From a bacterium (GTDB lineage: Bacteria; T1Sed10-126; CAZEBV01): 39,648 nt of DNA. The notes beneath the pieces are model-generated. The model was not told the origin of the DNA. It made no database searches and worked only from the letters and a program-made list of their open reading frames with translations. The position numbers and the translations under genes are program-made. Of this stretch, positions 4,792 through 29,071 are shown piece by piece (positions within the stretch are counted from its first letter, which is position 1; each line of letters begins with the position of its first letter). Where the stretch lies: NCBI GenBank assembly GCA_042219765.1, contig JBDGPI010000068.1:10164-49811 (forward strand). The letters run 5' to 3'.

Positions 4792-6306
4792 ATGGCGTCA
4801 GCGTCCGGCCGGGAAGTTTACGAAAAAGTTCGAGCGGTCAGCTACGGTGCTCTGGTGACGATCACTGGCACCGGTGTCAAACGCCTGCTGGTGGTCATCA
4901 CGAACGTACTTTTGACGCGATACTTGAGACCTCTCTCCTACAGTGCCTTCGCTTTGTGCTGGCGGGTGGTTCAGGGTTTAAAGCAATTCATCCCACTGGG
5001 TTCCACGGTAACCGTGGTAAGGGACGGAGCCCGTTCCCGTTCCAGAAGCGATCGATCCGAGACTGCCATGCTTGCCTACGGAACGACACTGATCGGCGGT
5101 CTGTTGTTCTCCGTCAGTATTTACTTACTTGCTCCAGTTTTAAATTTTTACACACTGAACGTCCCTGAATTGACTGTTGCCTTCGGAGTGGCGGAGCTCA
5201 CGTTACCCTTTACCGGTCTGGTTTTAATTAACGGTCACTTTTTAAGGGGCCAGGAAAAAATCGAGCAACTTTTACTGTTGAAGGATATCGGCTGGCCCCT
5301 GACACGGTTACTTTCAGTTATCGTCGCGCTGTATCTGAGTTACGAATTAATTGGCGTCCTGGCAATGCTCTGCCTGGGGACGGCTCTTCTTGGAATTTCA
5401 GGTGTTGTACAGACCCTTCGTGTAACCGATACGGGCTTCAGGGTCCCCTCGCTCAATCGAATGAAATCCTTCTACAATCACTCAATACCAAGTGCCCTGA
5501 CGTACGTTGGAAAATTGCTTCGGATTGACATTTTAATTTTCTTTCTGGGCTTCTTTGCCGTCGACCAGGCCCCCGGTCAATACAACGTGATACTGCTGCT
5601 CGGTAAGATTGCTATCATTCCCCTGATAGGATTCAACAAGCTCTTACCTCCCATAGCCTCGGATCTTTACGCTCGCAACGAGGTTGAGATTCTTAATGAT
5701 ACTTACAAAGCGATAACCCGCCTGATCACTGCCCTGACCCTTCCTCTGATTCTTTTCATGATGGTCTTCAGTCAGGAACTCCTGCACGTTTTTGGACGGA
5801 GCTACGTTCCTGCTTACGGTGCCTTGATCGTTTTTCTTCTCGGTCGGCTTGTTGGCAACTGCGTGGGAGCCACGGGCTGGTTGCTTCTCATGACCGATAA
5901 CCAGTACCTTCGGTTGACCATTGATTGGCTTCTGGCTCTAATTAATATTCCCCTCAGTTATTACTTGATTGTTCACTACGGTCTGTTTGGGGCCTCGGTG
6001 GTTTATCTGTTTCAAAGGGGTTTTCAGAATATGATTCAGCTGGTGGTACTGCGTAAACTTGAAGGTTTGTTTCCTTACGATTGGGCTTACTTGAAACCTC
6101 TGGTCGCTTCCTCCGTCATGGGGGTTACCATGGTTGTCGTTAAACTGGGTCAATTTCCCATTGCGGCTAAGGTTCTGCTCGGTGGAATTGTCGGTACCTT
6201 GAGTTACTCAATTGTTCTGAATTACTTAGGACTGGAGGAGCTCGACCGAAAGCTCATAAGTGGACTCCGTGATGGATTCAGGCGGTTCATTGAGATCCAG
6301 CGGTAA
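4792..6306 (+). CDS. Polysaccharide/oligosaccharide flippase, MOP (Wzx-like) superfamily membrane protein
   Basis: It is a ~500-aa polytopic membrane protein. The N-terminus 'GALVTITGTGVKRLLVVITNVLLTRYL' is typical of Wzx/polysaccharide biosynthesis proteins. I prefer the ATG at 4792 (GAGG upstream) over 4747. Confidence 0.75.
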   Translation: MASASGREVYEKVRAVSYGALVTITGTGVKRLLVVITNVLLTRYLRPLSYSAFALCWRVVQGLKQFIPLGSTVTVVRDGARSRSRSDRSETAMLAYGTTLIGGLLFSVSIYLLAPVLNFYTLNVPELTVAFGVAELTLPFTGLVLINGHFLRGQEKIEQLLLLKDIGWPLTRLLSVIVALYLSYELIGVLAMLCLGTALLGISGVVQTLRVTDTGFRVPSLNRMKSFYNHSIPSALTYVGKLLRIDILIFFLGFFAVDQAPGQYNVILLLGKIAIIPLIGFNKLLPPIASDLYARNEVEILNDTYKAITRLITALTLPLILFMMVFSQELLHVFGRSYVPAYGALIVFLLGRLVGNCVGATGWLLLMTDNQYLRLTIDWLLALINIPLSYYLIVHYGLFGASVVYLFQRGFQNMIQLVVLRKLEGLFPYDWAYLKPLVASSVMGVTMVVVKLGQFPIAAKVLLGGIVGTLSYSIVLNYLGLEELDRKLISGLRDGFRRFIEIQR

Positions 6307-6357
6307 ATTTACCGTTGTTATATTCTGGCCGAGTGGTTGAGCGGAAAGATGAGACTC

Positions 6358-6393
6358 GAGAAAATTCTTGTTGAATTTTTTCTCATTTTTTAC
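6358..6393 (+). terminator. Weak AT-rich hairpin plus T-run downstream of the flippase gene
   Basis: The gagaaaa ... ttttctc stem is followed by attttttac. The stem is short and almost all A-U. Confidence 0.3.
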
Positions 6394-6497
6394 AAACTGC
6401 TTAATGCGAGCTACCAATAGCTAATATCCAATGAAGTGAGAGGGACGACGATTCAGATGAATGACGCTTTTAATCCTATATCGGGATTAGATCGACG

Positions 6498-7934
6498 TTG
6501 AGAACCAGCAAACTGGTTTCCCTTGCCTTTCTGGTGTTTCTCCTCTTCCTGACCACTTCTCCTCTTCGGGCAAAAGTCATTGTTGTTCCGGTCGATGGGT
6601 CCATTGACCATGGCATGGCGGGATTTGTTCAACGAACCTTCCGGGACAATCCCGGTGCGGAAAAATTCATTATAAAAATGAATACCTACGGTGGCCGAGT
6701 CGATGCCGCCATGCAGATTGTCGAGGCAATTTCTGAAACGATTGATGATGGAACTCCCGTCGAGGCCTACGTTAAGAAAAAGGCCTGGTCCGCCGGGGCT
6801 CTAATTTCTCTGGCCTGTAGCAGAATCTGGATGGGTGAGGAGGGGTCGATCGGTGCCGCGACGCCCGTGAGCGGTGGTGGAGGACCGGTGAGCGAAAAGT
6901 ACGTCTCGGCGTTGAGGGCCGAATTTCGATCGCTGGCGCAGGCCAACGGCTATCCGCCGACTCTGTCGGAAGCAATGGTCGACCGCAAAATTAAAGTTCT
7001 GAAAGTCCGGTCCGGTAATAAAATAGAGTACGTGGACGAGCGGCGGTTCCAGGAGATTTCCGGGGACGACACCGGGGTGCGTAAACTCGGGGTCTACCTC
7101 TCGGACACTCACTTACTGACCCTTACGGCCGAGGAAGCCAACCAGACGGGGTTTACTTCTAAATTATATTCCGATTTCGATGCCTTTCTCTCGGACAAAA
7201 ATATTACCCAGCGCGACCTCGAGCGGGCGGAGCGAAGCTGGTCCGAGGAACTTGTGACCGTCCTGCAGATGTCCAGTGTATCGACGGTCCTGATGATTCT
7301 GGCGTTTCTGGGAATTCAGGTCGAAGCTAAAACGCCGGGGTTAGGCGTTCCGGGTGCAATTGGAATTAGTTCGTTGCTGTTGTTGCTCTGGGGGAAGTAC
7401 ATGGCCGGTCTTGCGGCCCACCAGGAAATTCTTCTGGTTTTAGTTGGATTGGGCCTGGTCTGTATTGAAGTTTTTCTCGTCCCCGGACTCGGTTGGGCCG
7501 GTATCCCGGGAGCGCTGTTGGTTCTTGTCGGTATTTACCTGATGTTTCTCCCGTTTGTCGTGCCGGCTGATCCCTGGGATTATGACCTTTTGAACGCAAC
7601 TCTGCGTAGCATTTCGCTGTCGTTGATCCTTTCGCTGGTGGGACTCTATTTTCTCTGGAAACACCTGCCGGACTCGCCGGTACTCAGCTGGGCGGTTCAG
7701 TCAACGAGCCTATCGTCCGAGGACGGTTACAGCGTTCAGAGCAAGCGCGAGAAGGACCTCGTTGGACGAGAAGGTCGAGCCCTGACGGATTTACAACCCA
7801 TGGGAAAAATACGAATAGACCGGGACCGTTATCCCGTTAGAGTCAAGGGGGATTTTGCCGAAAAAGGTGACACCGTGGAAGTGGTAGACGTTGAAAGTAA
7901 CGAGATCATTGTAAAGAAGGTAAATGAATCGTGA
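6498..7934 (+). CDS. NfeD-family membrane-bound serine protease (long form: ClpP-like domain + TM bundle + C-terminal OB domain)
   Basis: A signal peptide is followed by 'KVIVVPVDGSIDHGMAGFV'. The putative nucleophile context is 'AWSAGALI'. Several TM helices are followed by a C-terminal 'GREGRALTDLQPMGKIRID...GDTVEVVDV' NfeD OB motif. The start is TTG. Confidence 0.9.
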   Translation: MRTSKLVSLAFLVFLLFLTTSPLRAKVIVVPVDGSIDHGMAGFVQRTFRDNPGAEKFIIKMNTYGGRVDAAMQIVEAISETIDDGTPVEAYVKKKAWSAGALISLACSRIWMGEEGSIGAATPVSGGGGPVSEKYVSALRAEFRSLAQANGYPPTLSEAMVDRKIKVLKVRSGNKIEYVDERRFQEISGDDTGVRKLGVYLSDTHLLTLTAEEANQTGFTSKLYSDFDAFLSDKNITQRDLERAERSWSEELVTVLQMSSVSTVLMILAFLGIQVEAKTPGLGVPGAIGISSLLLLLWGKYMAGLAAHQEILLVLVGLGLVCIEVFLVPGLGWAGIPGALLVLVGIYLMFLPFVVPADPWDYDLLNATLRSISLSLILSLVGLYFLWKHLPDSPVLSWAVQSTSLSSEDGYSVQSKREKDLVGREGRALTDLQPMGKIRIDRDRYPVRVKGDFAEKGDTVEVVDVESNEIIVKKVNES

Positions 7935-8443
7935 GTATTCCCTACCTGATAGGACTTTTCGTCCTTGGAACACTGGCGATAGCGGCCGAGGGTGTTATGC
8001 CGGGTGGCATCCTTGGGGTTATGGGAGGAGTTTTGCTGGCTGTTATCGTCGGTAGTGCTTTTATCAACCAGGGTTTGACGGCTGGTTTTGCGTTTCTCTT
8101 TGCGGCAGTAATAGCATCGTTCCTCGCTTTACTTCTGAGTGTTTACGTTTTGCAGGAGACGTCACTGGGCAGTTGGATGATCCTTGAATCGCCCTCCAGT
8201 GATGATTCGGAGGGTCAACCCTACGAATTCCTGCTCGGCGAACAGGGCACGGCCCGGTCCGATCTATCCCCGGGAGGCCGGGTTGAGATTGATGGGGAAC
8301 TCTACAATACAGTAACGCAGGGGGAGTACGTTGAGTCGGGAACAACGGTCGAGGTCATTGAAGTCGAAGGAAATCGAATAGTCGTCGAGGAACCGTTTGA
8401 ATCCGAGGAATCTCAATCCGAAAAAGGAGGCGAGACAGCATGA
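7931..8443 (+). CDS. Short NfeD-family protein (TM helices + C-terminal OB domain, no protease domain)
   Basis: Its GTGA start overlaps the upstream stop. The N-terminus is hydrophobic, followed by '[24 protein letters not shown]...[16 protein letters not shown]'. Confidence 0.8.
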
Positions 8444-9450
8444 CGCTCTGGGGGTTTCTAACAGTAGTTGGACTGCTGGCGGCGGCAGTCGTCGGGATTG
8501 TCTTTTTGTTTTACGGCTGGTTGATGGTCCGAGCCGTCCTCTGTGGTGTCTGGGTTGGTCCAATAACCATGATCGGCATGCAGTTCAGGGGCATCAGCCC
8601 CCGTGTAATCGTCAATGCGATGATAAAGGGGGCTAAGGCGGGGTTGAGCCTGGATATGAAAGCCCTGCAGTCCCATTACCAGGCCGGGGGAGACGTGACG
8701 AATGTGGTGCGTGCCTTAATTGCCGCCGATCGGTCGGATATACCGCTTGATTACGAGGACGCTACTGCAATTGATCTGGCGGGTCGTGACGTTCTGGAAG
8801 CCGTCAAGATCAGTGTTCTACCGAAAGTGATCGACTGCCCGACGGACGACTCACGCAAGGAGTTCCTTGAAGCCGTTGCCCAGGATGGCATTCAGATCAA
8901 AGCGAAAGCTCGCGTTACCGTTCGAGCCAACATCGAGGAACTCGTTGGGGGAGCCAACGAGGAGACGATTGTCGCACGGGTTGGTGAGGGAATCGTGACG
9001 AGTATCGGTTCGGCCGAAACCCACAAGGAAGTTCTTGCCAATCCCGATCGAATTACCCGGGAAGTTCAGGAAAAGGGCCTCGACGCCAACACGGCGTTCA
9101 ATATTCTGTCCATTGATATCGGTGACATCGACGTCGGCCGTAACGTGGGAGCGCACCTGCAGGCGGATCAGGCCGAAGCCGACGTGGAAGTCGCCCAGGC
9201 CGAGGCAGAGGAACGACGGGCGATGGCCGAAGCCCGGGAACAGGAAATGGCCGCAAAGGTCCGTGAAAACGAAGCCGAAGTCATGAAGGCCAAGGCTCGT
9301 GTACCCCAGTCCATTGGTAAGGCCCTCAGTGGCGATAACCTCAGTATCATGGACTATTACGAGCTGAAGAACATTCAGGCCGACACGGACATGCGCCAGA
9401 GTATTAGCGGATCGGGCAATGATTCCGAAAACGATTCCTTCAACGTTTAA
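8440..9450 (+). CDS. floA: Flotillin-like protein FloA (SPFH domain, YqfA/UPF0365 family), full-length paralog
   Basis: Similarity to Bacillus FloA is strong by eye ('[13 protein letters not shown]', '[11 protein letters not shown]', 'VGEGIV', 'DQAEAD', 'AEERRAMA', C-terminal '[16 protein letters not shown]'). An ATGA overlap links it to the upstream gene, with GGAGG 9 nt upstream. Confidence 0.92.
8881..8931 (+). repeat. 51-nt segment identical to 9925-9975 (copy in FloA paralog 1)
   Basis: caggatggcattcagatcaaagcgaaagctcgcgttaccgttcgagccaac is identical in both genes, while the flanking codons differ at many synonymous sites. Confidence 0.9.
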
Positions 9451-9465
9451 CGGGAGGTTGACGTT

Positions 9466-10395
9466 ATGGAAGTCTTAATCACTGGTATTGTTTTGGCTAT
9501 TACTGGAGCTGTGGCCCTCCTCCTTGGTATCTTTGGGCTTGTTTTCGTGTTTCGTTACGCGCCAACCTGGATCAAGGCCCTGACGTCGGGTGTGACCATC
9601 TGGCCCTGGACGCTGCTTTTTATGGACCTCCGGGGAGTCAGTTCGACGGAGGTTGTCGAAGCGTTAATCCAGGCCACACAGGCGGGGATCGACATAAGCC
9701 GGAACAACCTGGAGGCTCACTACCTGTCCGGTGGAAATATCATTAACTTAACCACCGCCCTTATTGAAGCCGACAAGGCTGACATCGAGCTGAGTTTCGA
9801 ACAGGCCGCGGCTATTGACCTTGCCGGACGGGACGTCTTCGACGCGGTGAAAATCAGCATTAATCCCCGGGTGATTGATTGCCCGAGCCCGAACGTCGAG
9901 AAGGAAACAGTTGAAGCAATCGCTCAGGATGGCATTCAGATCAAAGCGAAAGCTCGCGTTACCGTTCGAGCCAACCTTCAGCGTCTCGTTGGAGGCGCGA
10001 CCGAGGAGACTATTATCTCCCGAGTCGGAGAAGGGATCGTTTCCGCCATTGGAGCTGCCGAAAACCACAACAAAGTACTCGAAAACCCCAACCTGATTAC
10101 CCAGCAGGTGCTTGAGAAGGGACTCGATCAGGGAACGGCCTTTGAAATTCTCTCGATTGACATTGCCGACATTGACGTGGGCGATAACATCGGTTCGCTG
10201 CTTCAGGCCGACCAGGCGGAGGCCGACAAGAAGATTGCCCAGGCCGAGGCCGAGGAACGACGGGCGATGGCCGTCGCCGAGGAACAGGAAATGAAGGCCA
10301 AGGTGAAGGAAAACGAAGCCGAGGTCGTTAAAGCCGAAGCCGACGTCTACAATTCTCTTGCCGATGCCTTCGAACGGGGCAAAGTCAATTCATGA
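9466..10395 (+). CDS. floA: Flotillin-like protein FloA, second tandem paralog lacking the conserved C-terminal tail
   Basis: It has the same family motifs ('[23 protein letters not shown]', '[14 protein letters not shown]', '[15 protein letters not shown]'). It ends at '...AFERGKVNS' without the MDY..KNI.ADT.MR tail. GGAGG lies 8 nt upstream of the ATG. Confidence 0.9.
9925..9975 (+). repeat. 51-nt segment identical to 8881-8931 (copy in FloA paralog 2)
   Basis: Same string as 8881-8931. A second near-identical patch (gcccaggccgagg[c/a]... gaggaacgacgggcgatggccg) occurs near 9193 and 10240. Confidence 0.9.
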
Positions 10396-11129
10396 GTTTT
10401 GAAAATTTGATTTTCCTGATTTTTCTTTTCTTCATCGGCCGGTCCGTCTATAGTTCCCTGACCGGAGCGGACGAGGACGAGGAATCGGAGGTTGACGTCT
10501 CCGACGTGATGGACGCCATGGAAGGCTCCCAGCAGGATGGGGAGGAATCACCCTCTCCGGCGGATGACTCCTCGTCCGGGACTGATTCGGTTTCCACGGA
10601 AACGGCCCGGAGTCCTTCCGAACCGGAATCGAACACCGGTAGTTCGGAGGCGGTATCGGATTATCGGACTGCCACCGCAAGCGATGGCGGGGAACCGGAT
10701 CAGGCCTCCGGGGAGTCCACTGAAAAAGCGCATAAATCCTGGGACGAACAGTCCCGGGATCACAAAAGCTGGGACGAGGAAACAAGCGATCACACCTCCT
10801 GGGAGGACGAATCCCGGGATCATAAATCCTGGGATGAGACTGAGACGGACCACGAGTCCTGGCAGGAGGAACCAAGGGGAGAAGCACTAGAGGAAGCAAA
10901 AACCGACCAGCCCATCGAGCCCCAACAAGACCCGGAAAGTCCCGTGGAGGACCCCTCCAAATTTCCTGAAGCTGAGCAACCGGATAGGGAGGACGAATCC
11001 GAGGAAGAATCCTCCGGGGACCAGAAACAAGCAACGCAGTCCGAAAAATCCGTCGGGGCCAGGAACCTGAGGGACGCGGTTGTCTGGCGCGAGATTCTTG
11101 AACGTCCCAAGTCACTCCGTGACGAATGA
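10392..11129 (+). CDS. Acidic, low-complexity single-pass membrane protein with five His/Ser-Trp/acidic decapeptide repeats
   Basis: An ATGA overlap links it to floA-2. The N-terminal TM is '[11 protein letters not shown]', followed by a Ser/Asp/Glu-rich region containing [50 protein letters not shown]. No family was recognised. Confidence 0.7.
10731..10880 (+). repeat. Five imperfect 30-nt tandem repeats (in-frame, coding)
   Basis: Units sit at 10731-10760, 10761-10790, 10791-10820, 10821-10850 and 10851-10880. Each begins ca[t/c]..., contains tcctgg/gctgg, and encodes H-x-S-W-(D/E/Q)-(D/E). Confidence 0.85.
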
Positions 11130-11161
11130 CTGCAAGACCAGAGGTTTATTGAGGTCCTAAT

Positions 11162-11923
11162 TTGGAGGGATCCCGGTCCTCTAAGTCGTCCGGCTGGCTG
11201 ACAATTATGGTTGGAACCGCTTTCCTGGTCGCCGTAGTAGCGGCCAGCCTGGGGAGCTTGTATTTACTGTACTTTCGGTTCCAACCGGTGAACCAGGCTT
11301 CGGAAGAGAAGTCCTCCGGCAGAGAGGCCCTCCGTAAATTTCAGACCAAGCCATCCCGGCTTACACGGAATGATAAGACCAATCTGATTCAGAATGGTTC
11401 CTTCAACAGGAACTTTTCGGACTGGAAAAGGGTCTTTCAAGTTGATGACGACGACCGTTGGACGGTTAATCTGAGTACATCGCGCCGTCAGGATACTTTC
11501 GTAAATTATTCTCTCTCCAGGACAAACAGTGACGGAGCCCACCTCTGGCTCCGGCAGGCTCTCGATCATGCTACTCAATCGGACACGAATCTACGACTCA
11601 CCCTTGATTTGCGGCTTCCGGTGGAATCCTACAATCGAACCCGCCGGGCCCGCGAATTTCCGGTGTTTGTAAGTATTAAATACCGAACCCCCTCTGGTGA
11701 GACAGCTAAATGGAGGCGTGGGTTTTATAACATAAGCCCACCGGAGGCCGAATCCTACGCACGCAGAGTCAAGCAGGGAAAATGGTACCGATTCAGGTCC
11801 AAAAATCTCCTTGGAATTACGCCTCATCCCGCCAAATTACTTGCCGTAAAGTTCGGTGCTCAGGGCTGGGTTGTTCACGGTCAGGTCGACAACCTTGCGT
11901 TACTGAACGCTTCCAGTTCATAG
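11162..11923 (+). CDS. Membrane-anchored hypothetical protein, paralog A (putative CBM-like beta-sandwich ectodomain)
   Basis: The N-terminal TM is 'IMVGTAFLVAVVAASLGSLYLLYF'. 'NGSFNRNFSDW' resembles the opening strand of CBM4/9-type modules. It is clearly homologous to the next gene. The start is uncertain (TTG 11162 vs ATG 11207). Confidence 0.7.
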   Translation: MEGSRSSKSSGWLTIMVGTAFLVAVVAASLGSLYLLYFRFQPVNQASEEKSSGREALRKFQTKPSRLTRNDKTNLIQNGSFNRNFSDWKRVFQVDDDDRWTVNLSTSRRQDTFVNYSLSRTNSDGAHLWLRQALDHATQSDTNLRLTLDLRLPVESYNRTRRAREFPVFVSIKYRTPSGETAKWRRGFYNISPPEAESYARRVKQGKWYRFRSKNLLGITPHPAKLLAVKFGAQGWVVHGQVDNLALLNASSS

Positions 11924-12022
11924 GATTGAAGTAAAGAAATGATTCGGGACTTCAGAAGGTTGAAGTAGGTTTTCTCTGACGTTTTAAGAGTTTTCCGTAG
12001 ATACGATCGTGAGTGTCCATTT

Positions 12023-12793
12023 ATGAGTAATTCAACGGAATCATCCTCCAGCTCGAAATTCACCAGAGGAGTTCTGGGGGGCGTTTTTCTTGTTGCAATG
12101 GTCGTTCTCGGAGTCGGAGGATTTTACGGTCTTTACTCCAGTTACCGGTATTACGTTCAAACCGGGAGGACAGGGACGTCTCGGTCAACCGGGGACGTGA
12201 AGAAGTGGTCGGACGAAACCACCTCGACCGAAACACATTCCAGCGGGGGTTACCTGACCAATGGATCCTTCGACGACGCGTTGGTAGGTTGGACGGAAAA
12301 ACACCAGTCGAATACCGACGATCGCTGGAGCGTGGATGTTAAATCCGTGAAGGCCCGGGACTCCGTCTTCGATTACAGGAGAACTCAGTCCGGTGCGGAC
12401 GGTGGTTCCGTCTGGTTAGTGCAGGATTTAGGACTGGCACTGGAGGACTATAAGCGGGTACGGATCGAACTGGACGTTCGCATTCTTAAGCAAACCCTGA
12501 AACGCGGGAGTTCCTACGGAGAATACCCTGCCATGATTGTCTTAAGGTATCGAACGAAATCCGGTGACCGTGCTAAGTGGCGCTATGGTTTTCTAGTGGA
12601 GGGGGAGTCCAGGGCAGATTTCGCCTACCAGAGGGTTTCCCGCGGAGAATGGTTCCACTTCCGGTCCCCGAACCTGAAGAAGATTGACCCTCCACCGTCG
12701 GAGTTAGTCCGTCTTAAGATCGGCGGGCGAGGGTGGGACTTCCGTGGTCAGTTCGATCATCTTCTCTGGGTGACGAAACCCAACAGAAAGTGA
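12023..12793 (+). CDS. Membrane-anchored hypothetical protein, paralog B
   Basis: It has an N-terminal TM. Motifs shared with paralog A are 'NGSF..W', 'DDRW.V', 'YRT.SG..AKWR.GF', 'G.W..FRS.NL' and 'L...K.G..GW...GQ.D.L'. Confidence 0.75.
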   Translation: MSNSTESSSSSKFTRGVLGGVFLVAMVVLGVGGFYGLYSSYRYYVQTGRTGTSRSTGDVKKWSDETTSTETHSSGGYLTNGSFDDALVGWTEKHQSNTDDRWSVDVKSVKARDSVFDYRRTQSGADGGSVWLVQDLGLALEDYKRVRIELDVRILKQTLKRGSSYGEYPAMIVLRYRTKSGDRAKWRYGFLVEGESRADFAYQRVSRGEWFHFRSPNLKKIDPPPSELVRLKIGGRGWDFRGQFDHLLWVTKPNRK

Positions 12794-12944
12794 TCCAATA
12801 TTTTGGACTAAGCGTCAATCCTTCTCATACATCAAACGTTCCGGGGGCGTTTTGGGCAATCGAAGGTTGTCGGGCGGTTTGAACGGGAGGGAGTGATGTT
12901 AGTCGAAATAAGTCGGGTGAGGGGCTTGTTGAAAGGAAAAAGAA

Positions 12945-12972
12945 AAGCTCCCGCCCGTGAGGGCAGGAGCTT
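12945..12972. terminator. Bidirectional rho-independent terminator shared by the flotillin operon (+) and the csp gene (-)
   Basis: The 12-bp GC-rich stem aagctcccgccc-gtga-gggcaggagctt has one G-U pair. T-rich runs lie on both sides: gattattattttt on the + strand, and ttctttttcc on the - strand. Confidence 0.75.
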
Positions 12973-12983
12973 GATTATTATTT

Positions 12984-13196
12984 TTAAATACCGTTGTCGA
13001 CGGTGGAGACGTTGATGGCGGCAAGGCCTTCGTCGGTTTCCTCGAGTTCAAACTCGACTTCGTCTCCCTCACTGAGGGATTTGAATCCGTCGGATTGAAT
13101 TTCGGAATAGTGGACGAATACGTCGTCTCCGGTTTCTTGTTCAATGAATCCAAAGCCTTTGTCATCATTGAACCACTTAACAGTACCGGATTCCAT
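12984..13196 (-). CDS. Cold-shock protein (CspA family, CSD)
   Basis: '[15 protein letters not shown]' (RNP1) and 'DVFVHYS' (RNP2) are present. AAAGGAGG lies upstream of the ATG. Confidence 0.95.
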
Positions 13197-13515
13197 AACA
13201 GGTACCTCCTTTTCGTTAAAACATTACTCCTTGTCGTACAGCAATCACGTTTCGTAAAACACTTGCCACGCCTAAGAAGTTCTTAAACTAATTAAGGCTA
13301 ACACATGGAACCCCGCTTTCGTTAAGACTTCTCCGGGGAGGCCATTTTTGGGTGGAAAAAATCTCAGTTAAGACCCTGACGGACTGCTGGAGTGCGGCAG
13401 TGGAGACGGGAAGGGGTTTATTTCATGAACACGTTTAACCCAGATGAAATACCAGTGCCGTTGGGTCCTTCGTTCTTTAGCGGATACGGTTAAAGCCGTG
13501 GACGGCCCACGACGG

Positions 13516-13767
13516 TTAATCCGATTGGCTCTTGATTGTTTCGAGCAGCTCCTCCTGGTTGGATAGCATAGCGGGCACTTTCTCTAAAATTTCCGAAATC
13601 ACCAGCAGCACCCCGGACAGGAGAAAAATCAGAACACAGATTCCCCCTCGAATTTTATTTAACTGGCCCTCGGAATAGAAAACCAAGGGTGCCACAACGG
13701 TAGCAAAAAGCATAATCCAGCCGGCAACACGAAATAACCAGCTTAAGTACTTATTCAATCGTTCCAT
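13516..13767 (-). CDS. Small two-TM membrane protein, hypothetical
   Basis: It encodes 83 aa with two hydrophobic helices. AGGAGG lies 7 nt upstream of the ATG. Confidence 0.6.
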   Translation of the reverse strand: MERLNKYLSWLFRVAGWIMLFATVVAPLVFYSEGQLNKIRGGICVLIFLLSGVLLVISEILEKVPAMLSNQEELLETIKSQSD

Positions 13768-16752: not shown

Positions 16753-18798
16753 GTGGCCATCTTGAATCTAAAAAGAGTTTCCATGATTGTGATTATTGCA
16801 GCATTGATCGTCGCTGGAGGATTCTACTTGACGGGTGAATCGCCGGAGCCCGAGCAGGAAACTACGGAACAGCAAGAAGAGGAACTTAAAACGGCGGATT
16901 TTGGCGATCGGGATCTGGAGGTATCGGGAGAAGCGTCCCTGGACCTCCAGAAGGAGCAGACCCAGGAACAAGAGGAATCTTCTAAGGACGCCTACAACCG
17001 CTTTACGATTCCCGGGCAGGTTAATTTCCCCCAGGGAGTCAGTCCCTCCAAGGTTACTTTAAGGGTTAAGATACAGATCCTCACCCCGGATTCAGCCAGG
17101 AAGATGGCACAGAAAAACAATCCGAGACGGTTCATGCTCGCCGAGGGAGCGGAAAACAAATTCCAGGAAAAGACAATTGCGAAATCAATTCAGACCGACG
17201 AGCAGGGCCGGTTTGAAATACGAAATGCACCACCGGGTTTATACGGCGTTACAGCCGCCGATAGTAATTGGGTTGGTAAGACCAGGGCCCAGCAAATTGA
17301 GGCCCCCTCACTGGTGAGGCCGCTTGAACTCGAAGTTTCACGCACCTCGAAATTGGTAGGAACGGTCGTGGGTCCGGACAGTAAGCCCATCAACACCGCG
17401 GAAGTCGCGTATACCACCAAAAATGAGTCATTCAGGGTGGATGAACAGGGCCGTTTTTCACTTTCAACCATTGAACCCGGACAACGAATCGACAACCTTA
17501 AAATTTTAAATGACGGGTACAAACCGCTGTACGTCGACCAGCCACCCTTGAAACCCGGCGAAGTCCGTCATGATACCTTCATGTTAAAACAGGGAGCACA
17601 ACTCCAGGTCAAAATTCGTGATACACAGGGGGATCCCATCAAAGAGGGCCGCGTGATCCTTAACCGCGCGGACGACCATGAAATCACTACCAAACACCAT
17701 CTGGCTGCGGCACACGGTGGCGCAAAAATAGGTTCCGTAGATTCGAACGGACAGTTTACGTTCTCCAACCTGCGGCCGGGCAAAGTTAACGTAACGTTCC
17801 GGCACATGAGTTACATTCCCGAAGTTCAGACCGCCCGGATCGGGTCGGGGGAGTTAACGGAAGTCACCTTGACCGTCCCGAAAGGGAAACCCCTTAACCT
17901 GACCCTCGTTAACGAGAGGAACGGGAAAGCCGTGACCAGTGTTCAGCCACGGTTGGCCGTCTACGATGACAACGGCGATCAACTGAAGCCCGGTTATACG
18001 ATTCAAACCATCCAGGGCGATGGAACCATTAAAGCCTATCTGCATCCGGATGCAACACGGTTTGACATAAAAGCCAAAAGTAGACTCGGGCGATTCAAGC
18101 CAGCCACGAAAGCTTTCAGCGTAAGGGATTTACCCAACGTAAAACTCTCCCTGGTTCCGTCCAGTACGCCAAAATCCGTCCAACCTCCGGCCCCACCCGG
18201 CCTTCTTAAACTCGAAAGTGAGCAGGAACGGGACTGGTCAACAATCAACAAGGGGCGGATCTTTGTCATCGACCGCAACACCGGCAGCAGGGTTCACGTT
18301 CAGGTCGGGAGTGACAATGTCCTGGATGAACCACTCCCCCTGAAAACGGGTGAATACGTAATCTACGGGGTTTTTGAGCGCTCCGATGGAACGTCACTTG
18401 GATTTATAACGGACGCGGTCGTTGAAACCAAGCATCCAGGAAAGCGTACCGTTACGTTGCGTGAGACTGCGGGGGTGAAGAGATCACTCGGAGGACTGGA
18501 AAAGGACCAGTACAAGAACTTACGGATTGGGGTTTCTTTAATTCCACAGGAGTCACCCGGAGGTAGTTCCAGTACGGGGGCGGTCTTTTATCCCCAACCC
18601 CTCACGGCGACACCTGACGCCGAAGGGGAGTTTTCCCTGAATCATATTCCAGCCGGATCGGATTTAACCCTGCATGTAACTGTTCGGGGAGGATCGTCCA
18701 TCGATTCGGACGGTGGCTCGCTGGTGGCGGTCAAACCGTTACCATCGCTTAGTCCGGGGGAGACGAGGAACTTATCTTCTATTGAGATTACCCAATAA
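16753..18798 (+). CDS. Large membrane-anchored/secreted protein with repeated carboxypeptidase-regulatory-like (Ig-like beta-sandwich) domains
   Basis: It has an N-terminal TM and an acidic linker. Recurrent motifs are 'GRFEIRNAPPGLYGV', 'GRFSLSTIEPGQ', 'GQFTFSNLRPGKVNVTF' and 'GEFSLNHIPAGSDLTLHV'. The start is uncertain (GTG 16753, TTG 16762 or ATG 16783). Confidence 0.75.
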   Translation: MAILNLKRVSMIVIIAALIVAGGFYLTGESPEPEQETTEQQEEELKTADFGDRDLEVSGEASLDLQKEQTQEQEESSKDAYNRFTIPGQVNFPQGVSPSKVTLRVKIQILTPDSARKMAQKNNPRRFMLAEGAENKFQEKTIAKSIQTDEQGRFEIRNAPPGLYGVTAADSNWVGKTRAQQIEAPSLVRPLELEVSRTSKLVGTVVGPDSKPINTAEVAYTTKNESFRVDEQGRFSLSTIEPGQRIDNLKILNDGYKPLYVDQPPLKPGEVRHDTFMLKQGAQLQVKIRDTQGDPIKEGRVILNRADDHEITTKHHLAAAHGGAKIGSVDSNGQFTFSNLRPGKVNVTFRHMSYIPEVQTARIGSGELTEVTLTVPKGKPLNLTLVNERNGKAVTSVQPRLAVYDDNGDQLKPGYTIQTIQGDGTIKAYLHPDATRFDIKAKSRLGRFKPATKAFSVRDLPNVKLSLVPSSTPKSVQPPAPPGLLKLESEQERDWSTINKGRIFVIDRNTGSRVHVQVGSDNVLDEPLPLKTGEYVIYGVFERSDGTSLGFITDAVVETKHPGKRTVTLRETAGVKRSLGGLEKDQYKNLRIGVSLIPQESPGGSSSTGAVFYPQPLTATPDAEGEFSLNHIPAGSDLTLHVTVRGGSSIDSDGGSLVAVKPLPSLSPGETRNLSSIEITQ

Positions 18799-23391: not shown

Positions 23392-23618
23392 TTCGTTCGT
23401 GCTCTTATACCAAGTTACTGTCGGTCAACGATCTAATTCATTCGATTAAACCCTGTACTATCTATGCTACCCTACTTTTAGTAACAGGGTGTACAGACTG
23501 AAGTAGATTTCTTCTGTTTCACACTGGTTAAAAGGGAAATGTTAGTTTTCTCTCGCTTTCGGGAGGTTGAGAAGGTACTATTATGAACATTATTTGATGA
23601 AATAGATTGGAGACTTTA

Positions 23619-24323
23619 ATGACTGACGTAAACACTATGCCTCCCGGGCGGATAGTAACCGTCCTGTTCCTGTCCCTCCTTGGACTAAGCCCCCTGACAG
23701 CTCCGGCCTACGGCAAACCACTGGAAAAAGCGCTGGTCAAAAAGACAGTGAATCAGGTATTGGTTCACGAGAATATCGGCAGGGAAACTGATAGTCCCAG
23801 GCAAGCACGTGCCGGACGAGATATTCTGCAGGGCAGCATGGCCCTTGAGACACGACGTAAGTCCCGTTCCGAACTTTTGTTCGCCGATGGTAGTGTGGCC
23901 CGAATTGGATCCAATTCACTCTTCAGTTTTACCGAAACCGCACGCGAACTTCAGCTCGGTAGAGGAATTTTGCTGCTGCAGGTTCCGGGAAACTCGGAAA
24001 GAACGACTGTCAGAACGGCGGCCGCGTCGGCTGCTTTGACGGGGACGACGGTGATGCTGGAGCAACAACCCGATCAGTACGTGAAAATGATTGTTCTGGA
24101 GGGAACGCTTCAGGCTTATATCCCCGGTCGAATCGGAGAATCCCTGCCGGAACCGGTTTACGTGAATCTCGAGAAGCTGGTGGAAACGTCGGGGTTAATT
24201 CAGGAATTAGAACAACAGGGTAACATTGATGTTGCTGAGTTTGAGGATCGTAGTCTGGATCAGGAACAGTATCAGTCTTCCCTCGAGGAGCAGAAAAAGC
24301 AGATAGAAGTGGGGGATCTTTAA
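23619..24323 (+). CDS. FecR-domain protein (secreted/periplasmic)
   Basis: The signal peptide is 'VTVLFLSLLGLSPLTAPAYG'. The FecR-like core is 'ELLFADGSVARIGSNSLFSF...LQLGRGILLLQVPG...TVRTAAASAALTGTTVMLE'. The ATG at 23619 has GGAG 6 nt upstream. Confidence 0.8.
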   Translation: MTDVNTMPPGRIVTVLFLSLLGLSPLTAPAYGKPLEKALVKKTVNQVLVHENIGRETDSPRQARAGRDILQGSMALETRRKSRSELLFADGSVARIGSNSLFSFTETARELQLGRGILLLQVPGNSERTTVRTAAASAALTGTTVMLEQQPDQYVKMIVLEGTLQAYIPGRIGESLPEPVYVNLEKLVETSGLIQELEQQGNIDVAEFEDRSLDQEQYQSSLEEQKKQIEVGDL

Positions 24324-24332
24324 CCGACGGAT

Positions 24333-25817
24333 TTGAGTATCAACGGTCAGGGGGCTCGGGTAATACTCTCCTCGAATCAACTCGAAGGTCCCGAGTCCGA
24401 CGAGCGTCTGTACGAGAGTGTTTTTGGTAGTGGTAGTCTGACAAATAACGAAACTGAGGACGCAGTCAACGATAACCTGATCAGTCCTGACGATAACGTG
24501 CTTCCCTACCACTCCCAGTCGGTTAACGTCGACGGGAGCTCATCCATTGAAATGGCTTCACTGAAAGAAGTGGATTTCCCGCCAACTATTAGCAACGCAA
24601 GCAGTTATCAGGGAGGGATATACTCTCAGTCCCAGCTCGATGTCTCGCCGAACCAGTGGTACTTTCCGAACGATTCAAGCTGGGGAGCGTTTCTTGATTT
24701 CAACACGGCATTTCTCACGAATACCGGGTCTCGGCCGGTTTCGTCCTTTAAGTTTGAACAGTTCAGTTTGACCGGCAATCCTTCCGTTAACGTGCTCGAC
24801 GGTGGGCCGTCGGACCTTGCGTTTGCGACGACAACCCCTAACTACGATCTTAGCCTGACGAACGCCACCCTCTCGAACATCGACAGCCTTTCCCTGCTGG
24901 CGTCGGCGGGATCCGACGGTGGCTTGACCGTGAGTAACTTAACTCTCACCGAAGCGGGCGCGGACCTCGGGGTGTTCTCGCTGAACGGAAACGTTGGCCT
25001 TTCGAGTATTTCGCTTGCGTCGGACGGAAGCGGCCCCTCGGCCCGCTTATCGGCCAGGGCGGCTCCCTCCTTTGGAGGAATAACCCTGGGAGGCGTATCG
25101 GCCAACAGCATTGACCTCTGGTCGGACGGGTCGGTTAACGTTAATGGGGATCTGACGGCTTACGTTCCCGATAGTGAGACCTCCCAGACCAATGCCGTCA
25201 ACATGATCTCCTCGCTCACGTACCCGAGTGACATGGGTGTGTTACTGCAGAGCAGTACGTTAATAAATGCCGTCGCAAATTCGAGTAACGTGGGCGGCAC
25301 CATTCGCATGATTACCCAGGGGGCGGAGATCGATGTACGGGGGACTCTCGAAGCCGACCATGGAACAATTACGCTGCAGAATAACGGCGGTGGTCTGATC
25401 GATCTGAATGGGGTCACGGTCGGTATGGCAAGTAACGTCGACAACATTAAAGCTGAACTTTTCGGATCCGCGGGAAGTCTGTCTATTACTGGTGGCGCCA
25501 CGTTAAATGCGAGCGACATGATTGAGCTTTACGCCAGTCGGTCCGGGAGCAATGGCCTCGTTGAATTTAGTGGGAATGCGTCGATTACCGGAAGTGCCCT
25601 GAAGAAGATAACGGGCGGGACCGTGAGAATTACCAGCGGTAACACAGTGACAATTGACGGCAATGACCTCACGGTTACTGCGGATTCTGCTGAGTTCAGT
25701 ATCAGTAATTTTGGAACCGTTGATGATAACAACGGCCTTACGGCCGATGGTACCGGCGGCACGTTTCAGGGAAATGATGGAAATGAAACGATCATTCTGA
25801 AGCCGTTATCGAACTAA
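24333..25817 (+). CDS. Ser/Thr/Asn/Gly-rich beta-helix-like repeat protein; in frame with the FecR ORF and lacking its own signal peptide
   Basis: Repeats are adhesin/passenger-like ('LTVSNLTLTEAGADLGVFSLNGNVGLSSISL', 'GTITLQNNGGGLIDLNGVTVG', 'TVRITSGNTVTIDGNDLTVT'). The listed TTG start has no SD. It is separated from the FecR ORF only by the TAA at 24321-24323. Confidence 0.65.
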   Translation: MSINGQGARVILSSNQLEGPESDERLYESVFGSGSLTNNETEDAVNDNLISPDDNVLPYHSQSVNVDGSSSIEMASLKEVDFPPTISNASSYQGGIYSQSQLDVSPNQWYFPNDSSWGAFLDFNTAFLTNTGSRPVSSFKFEQFSLTGNPSVNVLDGGPSDLAFATTTPNYDLSLTNATLSNIDSLSLLASAGSDGGLTVSNLTLTEAGADLGVFSLNGNVGLSSISLASDGSGPSARLSARAAPSFGGITLGGVSANSIDLWSDGSVNVNGDLTAYVPDSETSQTNAVNMISSLTYPSDMGVLLQSSTLINAVANSSNVGGTIRMITQGAEIDVRGTLEADHGTITLQNNGGGLIDLNGVTVGMASNVDNIKAELFGSAGSLSITGGATLNASDMIELYASRSGSNGLVEFSGNASITGSALKKITGGTVRITSGNTVTIDGNDLTVTADSAEFSISNFGTVDDNNGLTADGTGGTFQGNDGNETIILKPLSN

Positions 25818-25931
25818 ATAAGCACCCGGACTGTGTTGTTCCAGTGGCCCGGAGTGAAGGGGGATGCCTGGCGAAACCGGCCAAGCCTTTACTGGCATTG
25901 CGTACACAAATTCGAAATCTAAGGTCAGACG

Positions 25932-26951
25932 GTGACTCTTGTGAAAAACCTTATTAGACGTTACGGAGCCGGCTGGAAGTGGTTCAGTCTTCCTCTGATA
26001 GTAATCTACTTCACTCAGCCGGTATTTCCTCAGGAACAGGCGGATCAGCTCCGCCAGCTTCTGGAGTTCGAGGACCGCCAGGAGAGAAATCTAAAGGATG
26101 AAGAGGATTCGGAGCAGGCCTTTCTGGAGGAGGCGGGTGATGATATGGGCCGGCAGGACATCCTCCGCAAACCGACCGAGCACAAGCCATTCCGGGCTTT
26201 TTCGGAGCTCAGCCAACGGGCCACCGACAACGCGGCCCTTTCTCCTTTTACGAAGCGATCCGATTTTATGTCCTCGGTCACGACAGGATTCGAGTACTAT
26301 CCTTACGAGGGGTCCCCGAAACCGATCAACCTCAGGGTCCGACAGCAAGTTTTCCGTTACCGTGACAACTCCGCCTTTGACTTCGATCGTTTGACGCTCG
26401 AAGCCAGAGGGACCCGAAAACGACAAATCATGGATTATCCGCTTTATTTTACTGGCCGCTACGGTTACGAGGAACTACGCAGTGGTTCCTTCCTGGGCGG
26501 GGCCGAGCACCGGAATTTGATTCGGTCATTTCACGTCGTTGCCGGAAACATACGCTTTTTTCATTTTCTTTCGCGATACGAAACACTGATCCCGAAGGTT
26601 GCCGTTGAAGTTGAACAGACGGATCGATTGAACGGTCGAAAAGGTAGTACCGCCGACAACGAGAAGAACAACGTTTCGCTGTCCTTAACCTACTACAGGG
26701 ATTACAGCCGGAAATTAAACTACTACGGTTCCCTGCGCTACCGGCATTCGGACTACAGGCATGTAGAAACGCTCAATGGTCTCAGGGAGGACCGGAACCA
26801 GGCCCTAACAGTCGGTGGGGAATGGACGTTCTTTTCGGGGGTTGCGATCAATCTCCACGGTTTCTACGCTCGGAATGAGTCCAACGGCCGCAGTTACGAG
26901 TACAGAGTGGGAAACCTGGGCAGCCAATTTAACCTTTCCTATGACTTTTGA
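25932..26951 (+). CDS. Outer-membrane beta-barrel protein (hypothetical)
   Basis: After an N-terminal hydrophobic segment and an acidic region come alternating-polarity strands rich in Y/R/G. The C-terminus '...FNLSYDF' ends in Phe. Its stop overlaps the start of the cyclase gene. Confidence 0.7.
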   Translation: MTLVKNLIRRYGAGWKWFSLPLIVIYFTQPVFPQEQADQLRQLLEFEDRQERNLKDEEDSEQAFLEEAGDDMGRQDILRKPTEHKPFRAFSELSQRATDNAALSPFTKRSDFMSSVTTGFEYYPYEGSPKPINLRVRQQVFRYRDNSAFDFDRLTLEARGTRKRQIMDYPLYFTGRYGYEELRSGSFLGGAEHRNLIRSFHVVAGNIRFFHFLSRYETLIPKVAVEVEQTDRLNGRKGSTADNEKNNVSLSLTYYRDYSRKLNYYGSLRYRHSDYRHVETLNGLREDRNQALTVGGEWTFFSGVAINLHGFYARNESNGRSYEYRVGNLGSQFNLSYDF

Positions 26952-29071
26952 CATTACTTTCGGATCCGGGTACTCCTTTGAGTCGTAAATTCCGCCGATA
27001 TTTTGTTCTTACCGTAATCTGCCTAAGCGTAATTGTGCTCACCGCAGGGAGTCAGGCTTACCGTCTTGAATTTCTTTACCGTTCCGAAGCCTATACGATG
27101 GATCTTCGGTCTCGGTTAGGACGGACCACGCCGGTTGACGGGAGACTTGTCTATTTGGCAATTGATCGTCCGTCTTACTGGGCGGATATTGGCGAGCGGA
27201 TTGACCGGAATGAAGTGGACGACCATCCCGCTCTCGGGAAGATGATGCAGAATTTTCCCTGGAACCGGTCCGTCTGGAGTGACGTTATTGAGCGAGTGGT
27301 TGGTGAGGGTGGGGCTGAGGTCCTGGTTCTGGATCTGCTTCTTGAAAATGAGGCCCCGGGCGATACTCGACTCCGGGAAACGTTGTCCGATTATTCCGAC
27401 AGCGTCGTGATCGGTGGGCGCATGGACTACCAGGAGTTTAACGGCACCAGGGTTGAATCACTCATAACACCGAGTTCAAGTCTTTTCGAAAATCCGACCG
27501 AAGAAGCACTCTCCGAGAGTGGACAGGTGGGTCACGTGAACCTCTGGGCCTGGCCCTGGAGTGGTAAGTACCGAACGATTGAATACCGTTTGCCAGTCAG
27601 GGGTGAGACCTTTGAATCTATTTCGGCCAGGGCCGTACGCTTTACTGGTCGTGAAGAACTCATACCGGCCGGTCAAAGTGATCGCCTCATTCGGTTCTCC
27701 GGACCACCGGGAAGCTATCGTCCCTATCCAATTTATCAGATTTTTATTGATGATATCTGGAACGATTTTTTTAAATCGACGGAGTTTTTCGAGGATAAAA
27801 TTGTCCTGGTCGGTCCGTCGGGCAACTGGCAACAGGACTACCACCCGACCCCGATGGCCGATCGGGAAATGGCAGGTCCTGAAATCCACCTGAATGCAAT
27901 AGCCGCCCTGCTCCACCAGGAGTTCCTTCAGCTCACACCGGCAGTCTGGACCTATAGCCTGATTGTGGTCTTTGGGCTGATGTCACTGCTGGGCGTTCTG
28001 ACGGGCTCGGTTTTCATCCGGCTAATGCTGCTGGCCCTGCTAAATATTCTGTACGGTGCCGTAGCATTGAGCGTCTACAACTGGTATGGATTGTACCTTC
28101 CGGTCATTGCTCCGATCTTGAGTCTTAACGGGTCCGGCCTCGGGCTCTTCGGCTACGAGTACGTTGTGGAACAGCGGGAACGGAGGCGATTACGGAGTAC
28201 CCTCGATCGTTACATTTCCGAGGACGTTGCGGCTGAAATTCTAGAGAGCCGAAGTGATTTCTACGAGGCATTGGGAGGCAGACGAAAACCGGTTACGGTC
28301 CTCTTCGCCGATATCAGAGGGTTTACGACTCTTTCGGAGAAACGCAGTCCCGAACAGATGGTCTCCCAGTTAAACGAGTACCTGACGCCGATGGTCGAGT
28401 TGATTCAGGAATCACGGGGCCGGCTGGATAAGTTTATCGGGGATGAGATTATGGCCGTCTGGGGGGATCTCTTTGAAGACACCGAGCCGTCGACAGGCGC
28501 TAACAGAGCCGTGGAGACGGCCGTTTCCATGCGGAAGACCCTGGAAAACTTGAACGCTAACTGGAAACAGAGGGGGGATCCCGAGCTGTCCTTTGGAATT
28601 GGGATCAATCACGGGGAGGCTCTTTTTGGTAACCTGGGTTCCGAACAGAGGATGGAGTTGACCGTAATTGGTGATGCGGTGAACCTGGCGGCTCGCCTTC
28701 AGGGTACCACAAAGCGATACGGGATTGATCTCGCGGTTTCCGAAACTGTGAAGGAACTGACGGAGGGAACCTTTATTTATCGGACCGTTGATCTGGTAAC
28801 GGTCAAAGGTAAAACGGAGCCAACGGAATTGTTCACGGTACTCGACCGGCGGTCCGATCAGTCCGAACCGGACTGGCTTGACCCTTACGAGGAGGGTGTG
28901 GGGTATTATCGTGACGGAGCGTTTGAGGACGCGCTCGGGGCGTTCGAGCGGAGCAGGGAAATCGGAGGGATCGACAACCTGCTGGAGTTGTACATCGAAC
29001 GGTGCCAGGACCGTCTTGAAAATCCCCCGGATTCGAACTGGAGCCCGGTGGTTAGTCTCTCAAGTAAATAA
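26948..29071 (+). CDS. CHASE2 sensor-domain adenylate cyclase (class III, IIIb-like) with a TPR-like C-terminal tail
   Basis: An N-terminal TM and a ~300-aa periplasmic CHASE2-like region are followed by three TM helices. The catalytic domain carries 'VTVLFADIRGFT', 'KFIGDEIMAVWG' and 'TVIGDAVNLAARL'. Confidence 0.9.
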   Translation: MTLLSDPGTPLSRKFRRYFVLTVICLSVIVLTAGSQAYRLEFLYRSEAYTMDLRSRLGRTTPVDGRLVYLAIDRPSYWADIGERIDRNEVDDHPALGKMMQNFPWNRSVWSDVIERVVGEGGAEVLVLDLLLENEAPGDTRLRETLSDYSDSVVIGGRMDYQEFNGTRVESLITPSSSLFENPTEEALSESGQVGHVNLWAWPWSGKYRTIEYRLPVRGETFESISARAVRFTGREELIPAGQSDRLIRFSGPPGSYRPYPIYQIFIDDIWNDFFKSTEFFEDKIVLVGPSGNWQQDYHPTPMADREMAGPEIHLNAIAALLHQEFLQLTPAVWTYSLIVVFGLMSLLGVLTGSVFIRLMLLALLNILYGAVALSVYNWYGLYLPVIAPILSLNGSGLGLFGYEYVVEQRERRRLRSTLDRYISEDVAAEILESRSDFYEALGGRRKPVTVLFADIRGFTTLSEKRSPEQMVSQLNEYLTPMVELIQESRGRLDKFIGDEIMAVWGDLFEDTEPSTGANRAVETAVSMRKTLENLNANWKQRGDPELSFGIGINHGEALFGNLGSEQRMELTVIGDAVNLAARLQGTTKRYGIDLAVSETVKELTEGTFIYRTVDLVTVKGKTEPTELFTVLDRRSDQSEPDWLDPYEEGVGYYRDGAFEDALGAFERSREIGGIDNLLELYIERCQDRLENPPDSNWSPVVSLSSK

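Follow-up and report, generated by a model that had tools for sequence, protein, structure and literature searches.

A FloA operon with tandem floA genes and a YqfB-type gene in a bacterium of the GTDB lineage T1Sed10-126

We describe here a flotillin locus in the window, a stretch of 39,648 nucleotides (positions 10,164 to 49,811 of contig JBDGPI010000068.1) from a bacterium of the GTDB lineage T1Sed10-126. The locus comprises seven open reading frames (ORFs), all on the plus strand at 6498-12793, which we call g1 to g7 in order. We hold with reasonable confidence that g1-g5 are a conserved FloA operon with tandem floA genes, that the two FloA proteins join in a mixed assembly on which the NfeD proteins dock, and that g6 and g7 are not members of this system. 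The unusual feature of the locus is the full floA duplication, in which the second copy lacks the C-terminal element of the family. Apart from this duplication and an inflated acidic g5, the operon is of a known, widespread and ordinary type.

An initial annotation, made from the sequence, had placed all seven genes in one self-contained module with three uncharacterised partners downstream of floA. The layout that it gave is confirmed from the sequence. The GTG start of g2 overlaps the stop of g1 (GTGA at 7931), the ATG of g5 overlaps the stop of g4 (ATGA at 10392), a further ATGA overlap lies at 8440, and the remaining gaps are 15 nt (g3/g4), 32 nt (g5/g6) and 99 nt (g6/g7). Comparison with other genomes does not support the claim of three uncharacterised partners, since g5 is a YqfB-type gene and the domain of g6 and g7 is not next to floA in any of about 165 further loci. 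The synteny of g1-g5 in other genomes means that their arrangement is not due to chance. In the deposited record the proteins of the window are MFB6345457-62, with locus tags ABEK50_06795 and ABEK50_06800. The features of the operon are as follows.

6498..7934, plus strand: g1, long NfeD1b, 478 residues (PF25145, 1.8e-32; PF24961, 7.7e-22; PF01957, 8.8e-13)
7931..8443, plus strand: g2, short NfeD, 170 residues, with transmembrane (TM) segments, an OB domain and an acidic tail (PF01957, 3.5e-15)
8440..9450, plus strand: g3, FloA1, 336 residues, full-length FloA (PF12127, 2.8e-134; NF010186, 456 bits)
9466..10395, plus strand: g4, FloA2, 309 residues, FloA paralog (PF12127, 4.5e-126; NF010186, 430 bits)
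10392..11129, plus strand: g5, YqfB-type small membrane protein, 245 residues (motif model, position after floA, ortholog on contig L001)
10731..10880, plus strand: five tandem 10-residue repeats, D-H-K/T/E-S-W-D/E-E-x-x-x, in the linker of g5 (regular expression, residues 114-163)

Tandem FloA proteins

The Pfam and NCBIfam matches support the earlier naming of two FloA paralogs, a long protease-type NfeD and a short OB-only NfeD. Both FloA1 and FloA2 exceed the NCBIfam equivalog cut-off for FloA (NF010186, 393 bits), and they share 59% identity. FloA1 is built from a TM helix, a six-helix subdomain, the SPFH core, a coiled-coil helix (236-297) and a terminal helix (303-322), and in its AlphaFold2 model (pLDDT 87) the C-terminal motif forms this last, separate helix past the coiled coil. 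In FloA2 the TM helix, the SPFH core and the coiled coil are all present, but the protein stops where the coiled coil stops and is without the terminal helix and its DYYxxxNIQADTxMR motif. With an optional leading M, this motif is found in 84 of 88 FloAs; it is missing from the FloA2 of the window and from that of its closest relative, and the remaining two proteins without it (L068 and L073) also have no normal C-terminal ends. Thus, FloA2 is an atypical FloA member, and it retains every column that is invariant across FloAs. A remnant of the tail lost by frameshift was sought in any frame of 10300-11200, and no motif was found there.

We collected 80 floA loci from GTDB, with a FloA alignment as the query, and 80 from metagenomes, with FloA2 as the query, and annotated all ORFs in them by phmmer against the domains of the window. 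Architectures were counted in the 106 loci with complete flanks, as raw counts uncorrected for phylogeny. A full tandem floA is present in two of these, the window and the 18.6-kb Logan contig L001, which encodes the closest relative of FloA2 (P0152, 69% identity). The order on L001 is NfeD1b, short NfeD, FloA, FloA, acidic TM protein, PilZ, PilZ. A scan of genome contigs with g1 as sole query gave no relative. Among 88 FloAs, a neighbour-joining tree (100 bootstraps) pairs the FloA1 proteins of the window and L001 in 99/100 replicates and the FloA2 proteins in 100/100. Identity between the two loci is 67-69% for FloA2 and 64% for FloA1. Because the FloA1 and FloA2 orthologs pair separately and are only 64-67% identical, the duplication predates the split of the two organisms.

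On L001 the FloA2 ortholog (9604-11085, 493 residues) ends not in the canonical FloA tail but in an extension of 185 residues, made up of a Ser/Thr-rich linker and a small domain that matches GYF_2 below threshold (E 0.004). Tandem floA duplication of another, independent kind was seen in two metagenome contigs, L118 (Ga0111187_1025) and L160 (Ga0070726_10001902), where a "mini-FloA" ORF of 149 or 172 residues (L118:3543-3992, L160:4770-5288) lies between the short nfeD and a full floA. This ORF covers no more of FloA than the TM helix and the first ~120 residues, and in L118 its product shares 57% identity with that of the neighbouring floA.

A search of the PDB with the FloA sequence gave no match, and a fold search was used instead. 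With Foldseek, the FloA1 model matches the cage subunits of PHB1/2, HflK/C, stomatin, erlin1/2, flotillin and QmcA-YbbJ, and the structurally closest are of the HflK/C, prohibitin, flotillin and erlin types. The SPFH cages that match in this way are mostly built from paralog pairs. HflK/HflC, prohibitin-1/2, flotillin-1/2 and erlin-1/2 are adjacent or co-expressed paralogs which, like FloA1 and FloA2, differ most at the C-terminal "cap", and published structures of heteromeric SPFH pairs have their greatest divergence in the C-terminal regions, which alternate in conformation (PMC12624060). FloA1 and FloA2 are likewise paralogs from adjacent genes, belong to a single SPFH subfamily and diverge at the C-terminus. 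This analogy suggests a FloA1/FloA2 heteromer like HflK/C or PHB1/2. The difference is that FloA2 is without the C-terminal element altogether, whereas the known pairs have a divergent one, and that the assembly is predicted here. Tandem SPFH duplication behind NfeD has a precedent in the NfeD1a-SPFH1a.1-SPFH1a.2 operons of Hinderhofer et al. 2009 (PMC2636767), though these encode stomatin-like SPFH1a proteins and not SPFH5/FloA. In the literature we found no report of such a duplication for FloA, nor, in its searchable part, a description of a FloA-family heteromer.

NfeD proteins and the YqfB-type protein

The three domains of g1, NfeD1b_N, NfeD_membrane and a C-terminal NfeD OB domain, all match Pfam above the cut-off. 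The protein starts with a hydrophobic segment that resembles a signal, continues with a ClpP/SppA-like protease domain and, by hydropathy, about five TM helices, and ends in the OB domain. The AWSAGA context proposed earlier for the nucleophile is upheld by alignment with the long NfeD PH1510 of P. horikoshii. Its serine, Ser98 of g1, and Lys134 align with the catalytic Ser97 and Lys138 of PH1510-N (structures 2deo, 3bpp, 6m4b), positions that were read by comparing the wild-type chain with the S97A (6m4b) and K138A (3bpp) chains. The Ser-Lys dyad is kept in 48 of 49 NfeD1b proteins from the collected loci. We regard Ser98/Lys134 as a putative catalytic dyad, and protease activity of g1 is predicted from sequence. 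The one NfeD1b of the 49 in which both positions are changed (Ser to Gly, Lys to Glu) is an unusually long protein of 831 residues from Tundrisphaera sp. TA3 (L075:4192-6687), possibly an inactive protease variant.

The g2 product is 30% identical to the C-terminal third of g1 and has weak PDB matches to OB domains (3wwv, 2k5h). With its TM segments and OB domain, and its gene upstream of an SPFH gene, it is a short NfeD of the YbbJ/YuaF type. The initial annotation had pointed out that the locus has both a long and a short NfeD; such a pairing with floA is not unusual, being present in 26 of the 106 complete loci. The four arrangements upstream of floA, and the occurrence of a YqfB-type gene with each, are as follows.

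Long NfeD only: 34 loci, YqfB-type gene in 32
Long and short NfeD: 26 loci, YqfB-type gene in 19
Short NfeD only: 25 loci, YqfB-type gene in 10
No NfeD: 21 loci, YqfB-type gene in 2

Planctomycetota, Desulfobacterota, Nitrospirota and related groups commonly have the order nfeD1b-nfeD-floA-yqfB. It is found on contigs L002-L004, where the last gene encodes a small YqfB-type protein, and in many other GTDB and metagenome loci. The product of the ORF next after floA is in most loci a protein of 114-265 residues, in which a variable linker joins an N-terminal TM helix to a C-terminal motif of the form [AG][IV][IVL]x[AWS]E[IV]L(G)xP[RK][AS], of which GIILAEILAPPKALR and AVIWSEILAKPVALK are examples. 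A cluster of K/R residues usually follows the TM helix directly, which suggests that the C-terminus of these proteins is cytoplasmic. At least 60 of 86 loci have such a gene as the immediate same-strand neighbour downstream of floA.

The product of g5 has the same build, with an N-terminal TM helix (residues 5-25), an expanded acidic linker and the C-terminal motif A-V-x-W-x-E-I-L-x-x-P-x-x-L-R, which conforms to that of the family. We built a hidden Markov model of the motif from 52 loci, with the window and L001 left out, and searched it against 8018 ORFs. It matches g5 (E 1.1e-5, 23.5 bits) and the L001 ortholog (E 1.8e-6), its other significant matches are all ORFs that floA directly precedes, and the E-value that comes next is 0.6. 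Since the model matches g5 and all its other significant matches lie just after floA, we assign g5 as the YqfB-type gene of the locus. The small protein of L003 has a precomputed weak match to the Pfam family PF27722 "YqfB". A word-index homolog search with g5 gave no matches, and Pfam and NCBIfam scans of g5 and of its YqfB-type orthologs gave noise matches alone, from a set that did not include the model PF27722. The E. coli ASCH-domain protein named YqfB is unrelated to the B. subtilis YqfB family (PF27722).

As described in the initial annotation, g5 encodes an acidic repeat protein. Asp and Glu make up 28.5% of its residues, its isoelectric point (pI) is 4.1, and the acidic repetitive linker of about 200 residues contains five DH[KTE]SW repeats, in which Tandem Repeats Finder detects a period of 30 with 3.4 copies at 10734-10834. 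The repeats are missing from the L001 ortholog; the acidic repeat linker would be a lineage-specific expansion. The product from the ATG at 10392 is not in the protein collection, and the neighbouring accessions imply that MFB6345461 is the annotated gene. The deposited annotation probably uses a different start; the start at 10392 preserves the N-terminal TM helix of the family. Two other interpretations of this region were rejected. An origin of g5 as the detached C-terminus of FloA2 does not fit L001, which has both a FloA2 extension and a separate g5 ortholog, and a minus-strand ORF at 10432-11115 is displaced by the plus-strand product with its family TM helix, motif and synteny.

In all, 63 of the 106 complete loci (~60%) have a YqfB-type gene, and it accompanies NfeD1b in 51 of 60 loci (85%), against 12 of 46 (26%) where NfeD1b is absent. 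This distribution hints that the function of the YqfB-type protein may be tied to the NfeD1b protease. The floA loci of Bacteroidales mostly have no YqfB-type gene. The YqfB-type protein and its C-terminal motif represent a conserved, uncharacterised third component of FloA operons, and given the association with NfeD1b it is a concrete target for assays of binding or cleavage.

The closest known system to this operon is yqeZ(nfeD1b)-floA(yqfA)-yqfB of B. subtilis (SPFH5), which has the same order and strand as the window (PMC2636767, PMC3498285) and is an established sigma-W operon (PMC3498285, PMC8144471). It likewise encodes a long NfeD with a ClpP/SppA-like domain, FloA, and a small N-terminally anchored protein with a conserved C-terminal motif of the type E-I/V-L-G-x-P-R/K-A. 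Three things set the window apart: between nfeD1b and floA it has an extra gene for a short OB-only NfeD, a common situation outside Bacillota; it has an extra, C-terminally truncated second floA, which is rare; and its YqfB-type protein has a 200-residue acidic repeat linker. The archaeal pair PH1510/PH1511, in which both dyad residues of PH1510-N are kept in g1, and E. coli QmcA-YbbJ also have an OB domain that partners an SPFH protein, though this partner is of the stomatin subfamily and not FloA. To our knowledge, neither system has a YqfB-type gene.

CBM-like neighbours and limits of the transcription unit

Two further genes follow g5 on the same strand.

11162..11923, plus strand: g6, 253 residues, pI 10.5, single-pass signal-anchored protein with a CBM-like beta-sandwich ectodomain (paralog of g7)
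12023..12793, plus strand: g7, 256 residues, pI 9.7, TM helix 12-46 and beta-sandwich 91-253 (AlphaFold2 model)

The proteins are, as first annotated, paralogous single-pass proteins (32% identity, E 1e-45), and both are basic, with a pI of about 10. The CBM-like ectodomain that had been proposed for them holds at the level of fold but has no match to a curated CBM family. In the g7 model the ectodomain, a jelly-roll beta-sandwich, is predicted with pLDDT above 94, and Foldseek matches it to CBM11, CBM16, CBM4, CBM30 and CBM22 (E 5e-7 to 1e-5) and also to CBM-like domains of phage tailspikes. For CBM4/9, CBM11, CBM16, CBM22 and CBM30 the TM-score on the target reaches 0.67. The difference lies in the sequence, with 9-15% identity and no Pfam CBM model that matches at threshold, and in the lack of an attached catalytic domain. 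Neither g6 nor g7 has a match in Pfam or NCBIfam. The sole trace of a CBM in sequence is a sub-threshold CBM_4_9 match in a different region of the homolog P0006.

A word-index homolog search with g7 returned g7 itself only. A profile search of 1.8 billion representatives with g6 and g7 (E <= 1e-3) found 520 representatives, all of which match only the C-terminal domain of ~175 residues. This domain family begins with an N-G-x-F-x-x-G-L-x-G-W strand that is typical of CBM4_9-like domains, and it is joined in its homologs, archaea included, to OmpA, VWA, CARDB, CarboxypepD_reg and other domains. Because many homologs have signal peptides or lipoprotein cysteines, we place the domain outside the cytoplasm. 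The best homologs lie in unrelated contexts, P0003 by genes of pyrimidine/purine nucleotide biosynthesis and P0018 in an archaeal ribosomal/signal recognition particle neighbourhood. No locus other than the window, among the ~165 other floA loci, has the domain next to floA.

The initial annotation had named synteny with floA and nfeD as a test of its downstream genes. Counterparts of g5 are syntenic in other floA loci and g6 and g7 have none in the ~165, and in the one other genome with duplicated floA, L001, the g5 ortholog is present while a PilZ pair replaces g6 and g7. Since g6 and g7 are absent from the other floA loci and their homologs lie in unrelated contexts, the test goes against the membership that had been claimed for them. 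Judged by this gene neighbourhood evidence, g6 and g7 are probably neighbours of the operon and not components of a module, and they may be co-transcribed with it by read-through. There is a parallel in B. subtilis, where transcription of yqeZ-yqfA-yqfB reads through into the unrelated yqfC and yqfD (PMC3498285). The CBM-like genes add nothing demonstrable to flotillin biology.

At the position of g6 and g7, L001 (11887-13727) carries a tandem pair of PilZ-domain proteins of 267 and 272 residues with a common unannotated N-terminal region. Further along the window, at 16753-18798, a 681-residue protein has CarboxypepD_reg repeats, and no g6/g7 domain was detected in it; such repeats accompany a g6/g7-like domain in the distant homologs P0006 and P0010.

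Two hairpins bracket the seven genes.

6298..6317, plus strand: hairpin resembling a terminator, which closes the upstream gene for a polysaccharide flippase, likely the 5' boundary of the transcription unit
12945..12972, no strand assigned: 12-bp G+C-rich hairpin, clear intrinsic terminator of the minus-strand csp gene and possible stop for the plus-strand unit

The promoter presumably lies in the 180-nt AT-rich spacer at 6318-6497; we infer it there, as the spacer has no sigma-70 consensus. A sigma-70 promoter scan of 5800-13600 found no site, and since it is empty across the whole region it is uninformative on internal promoters. The hairpin at 12945-12972 had been annotated as a bidirectional terminator. 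It exists, but it scores as a terminator only for the minus-strand csp (cold-shock) gene at 12984-13196. On the plus strand a T-run begins ~9 nt past the stem, and bidirectional function is plausible.

A proposed mixed FloA assembly and its alternatives

We propose that FloA1 and FloA2 would together form a ring or cage of mixed composition on the cytoplasmic side of the inner membrane, with an altered cap because alternate subunits are without the C-terminal element. The OB domains of both NfeDs would dock on the FloA coiled coil. In methicillin-resistant Staphylococcus aureus (MRSA), NfeD binds the coiled coil of FloA through its OB domain, and stabilisation of clients requires the CC-LCR tail (PMC11222466). 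NfeD1b would contribute the Ser98/Lys134 SppA/ClpP-like protease domain, which is probably periplasmic, since a signal-like segment precedes it and about five TM helices follow it, with the OB domain inside. The g5 product would be a single-pass partner with its conserved C-terminal motif probably in the cytoplasm. The overall role may be in membrane-protein quality control and stress protection, as for Bacillus yqeZ-floA-yqfB and S. aureus floA-nfeD. The g6 and g7 products are predicted to be basic signal-anchored proteins whose extracytoplasmic CBM-like domains lie on the side of the membrane opposite to the FloA SPFH domains. If FloA1 and FloA2 do co-assemble, the locus would be a natural experiment on the conserved FloA C-terminal element, missing in alternate subunits, and would bring the FloA family under the "paralog pair" rule of SPFH cages.

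Could FloA2 instead be a degenerating, truncated duplicate with no distinct function, so that the locus is functionally equal to operons with a single floA? The missing motif, which 84 of 88 FloAs have, would fit this, as would the rarity of tandem floA (2 of 106 loci) and the truncated mini-FloA remnants beside a full floA in L118 and L160. We consider it unlikely all the same. FloA2 scores 430 bits against the cut-off of 393, keeps all FloA-invariant columns and has its stop translationally coupled to g5. Its ortholog is 67-69% identical while that of FloA1 is 64%, and with bootstraps of 99-100% this argues that FloA2 was kept through a long divergence; moreover, the tail of the L001 protein was replaced by a new C-terminal extension and not lost. 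It is more improbable still that FloA1 and FloA2 each pair with one NfeD to give two parallel homomeric scaffolds and no mixed cage. Both tandem loci do have two NfeDs and two FloAs, and direct binding of FloA by the NfeD OB domain is on record in MRSA (PMC11222466). However, 24 of the 26 loci with long and short NfeD have a single FloA, so the second NfeD is independent of the second FloA, and in solved SPFH systems adjacent paralog pairs make mixed rings (PMC12624060).

The self-contained microdomain module of the initial annotation, with g5, g6 and g7 as its dedicated clients or adaptors, draws on the tight one-strand spacing with no predicted internal terminator, on the Shine-Dalgarno-like GAGG of g6 and on the membrane side that the g6/g7 ectodomains and the NfeD1b protease domain could share. 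We rate it as decidedly improbable, given that g5 is an ordinary YqfB-type gene and no new addition, that the g6/g7 domain is promiscuous (520 representatives in many architectures, also in archaea) and in none of the ~165 other floA loci, and that the nearest relative has PilZ genes in its place.

Several points weigh against our own preferred account, the five-gene operon with a mixed FloA assembly. We infer heteromer formation, topology and co-transcription alike. The assignment of g5 to the YqfB type rests on position and motif and not on a PF27722 score. All four FloAs of the window and L001 group together weakly (46/100 bootstraps), and with a single further tandem-floA locus known, the retention of FloA2 rests on two genomes. 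As to g6 and g7, g6 begins 32 nt after g5 behind a GAGG Shine-Dalgarno-like site, with no detectable terminator between, and the two genes may be co-transcribed and have some functional coupling with g1-g5. The NfeD1b protease domain, if periplasmic, would be on the same side of the membrane as their ectodomains, and we therefore keep a small probability for a lineage-specific link.

A bolder version of the mixed assembly is an obligate alternating FloA1/FloA2 cage in which every second subunit lacks the cap helix, giving an open or re-functionalised cap. We put this forward tentatively, as a possibility that we would not at present expect to hold. In the relative L001, the alternate subunit of such a cage would instead bear a different C-terminal extension. 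If true, it would give the FloA/SPFH5 family its first heteromeric assembly and be an independent bacterial origin of the paralog-pair design of HflK/C, prohibitin, flotillin and erlin. As a weaker addition, g6 and g7 could be lineage-specific periplasmic substrates of the NfeD1b protease domain.

Elsewhere in the window, a same-strand cluster at 23607-29071 encodes a FecR-domain protein, two ORFs without Pfam matches (494 and 339 residues) and a CHASE2-adenylate/guanylate cyclase of 707 residues. This cluster looks like a sensor-cyclase signalling module.

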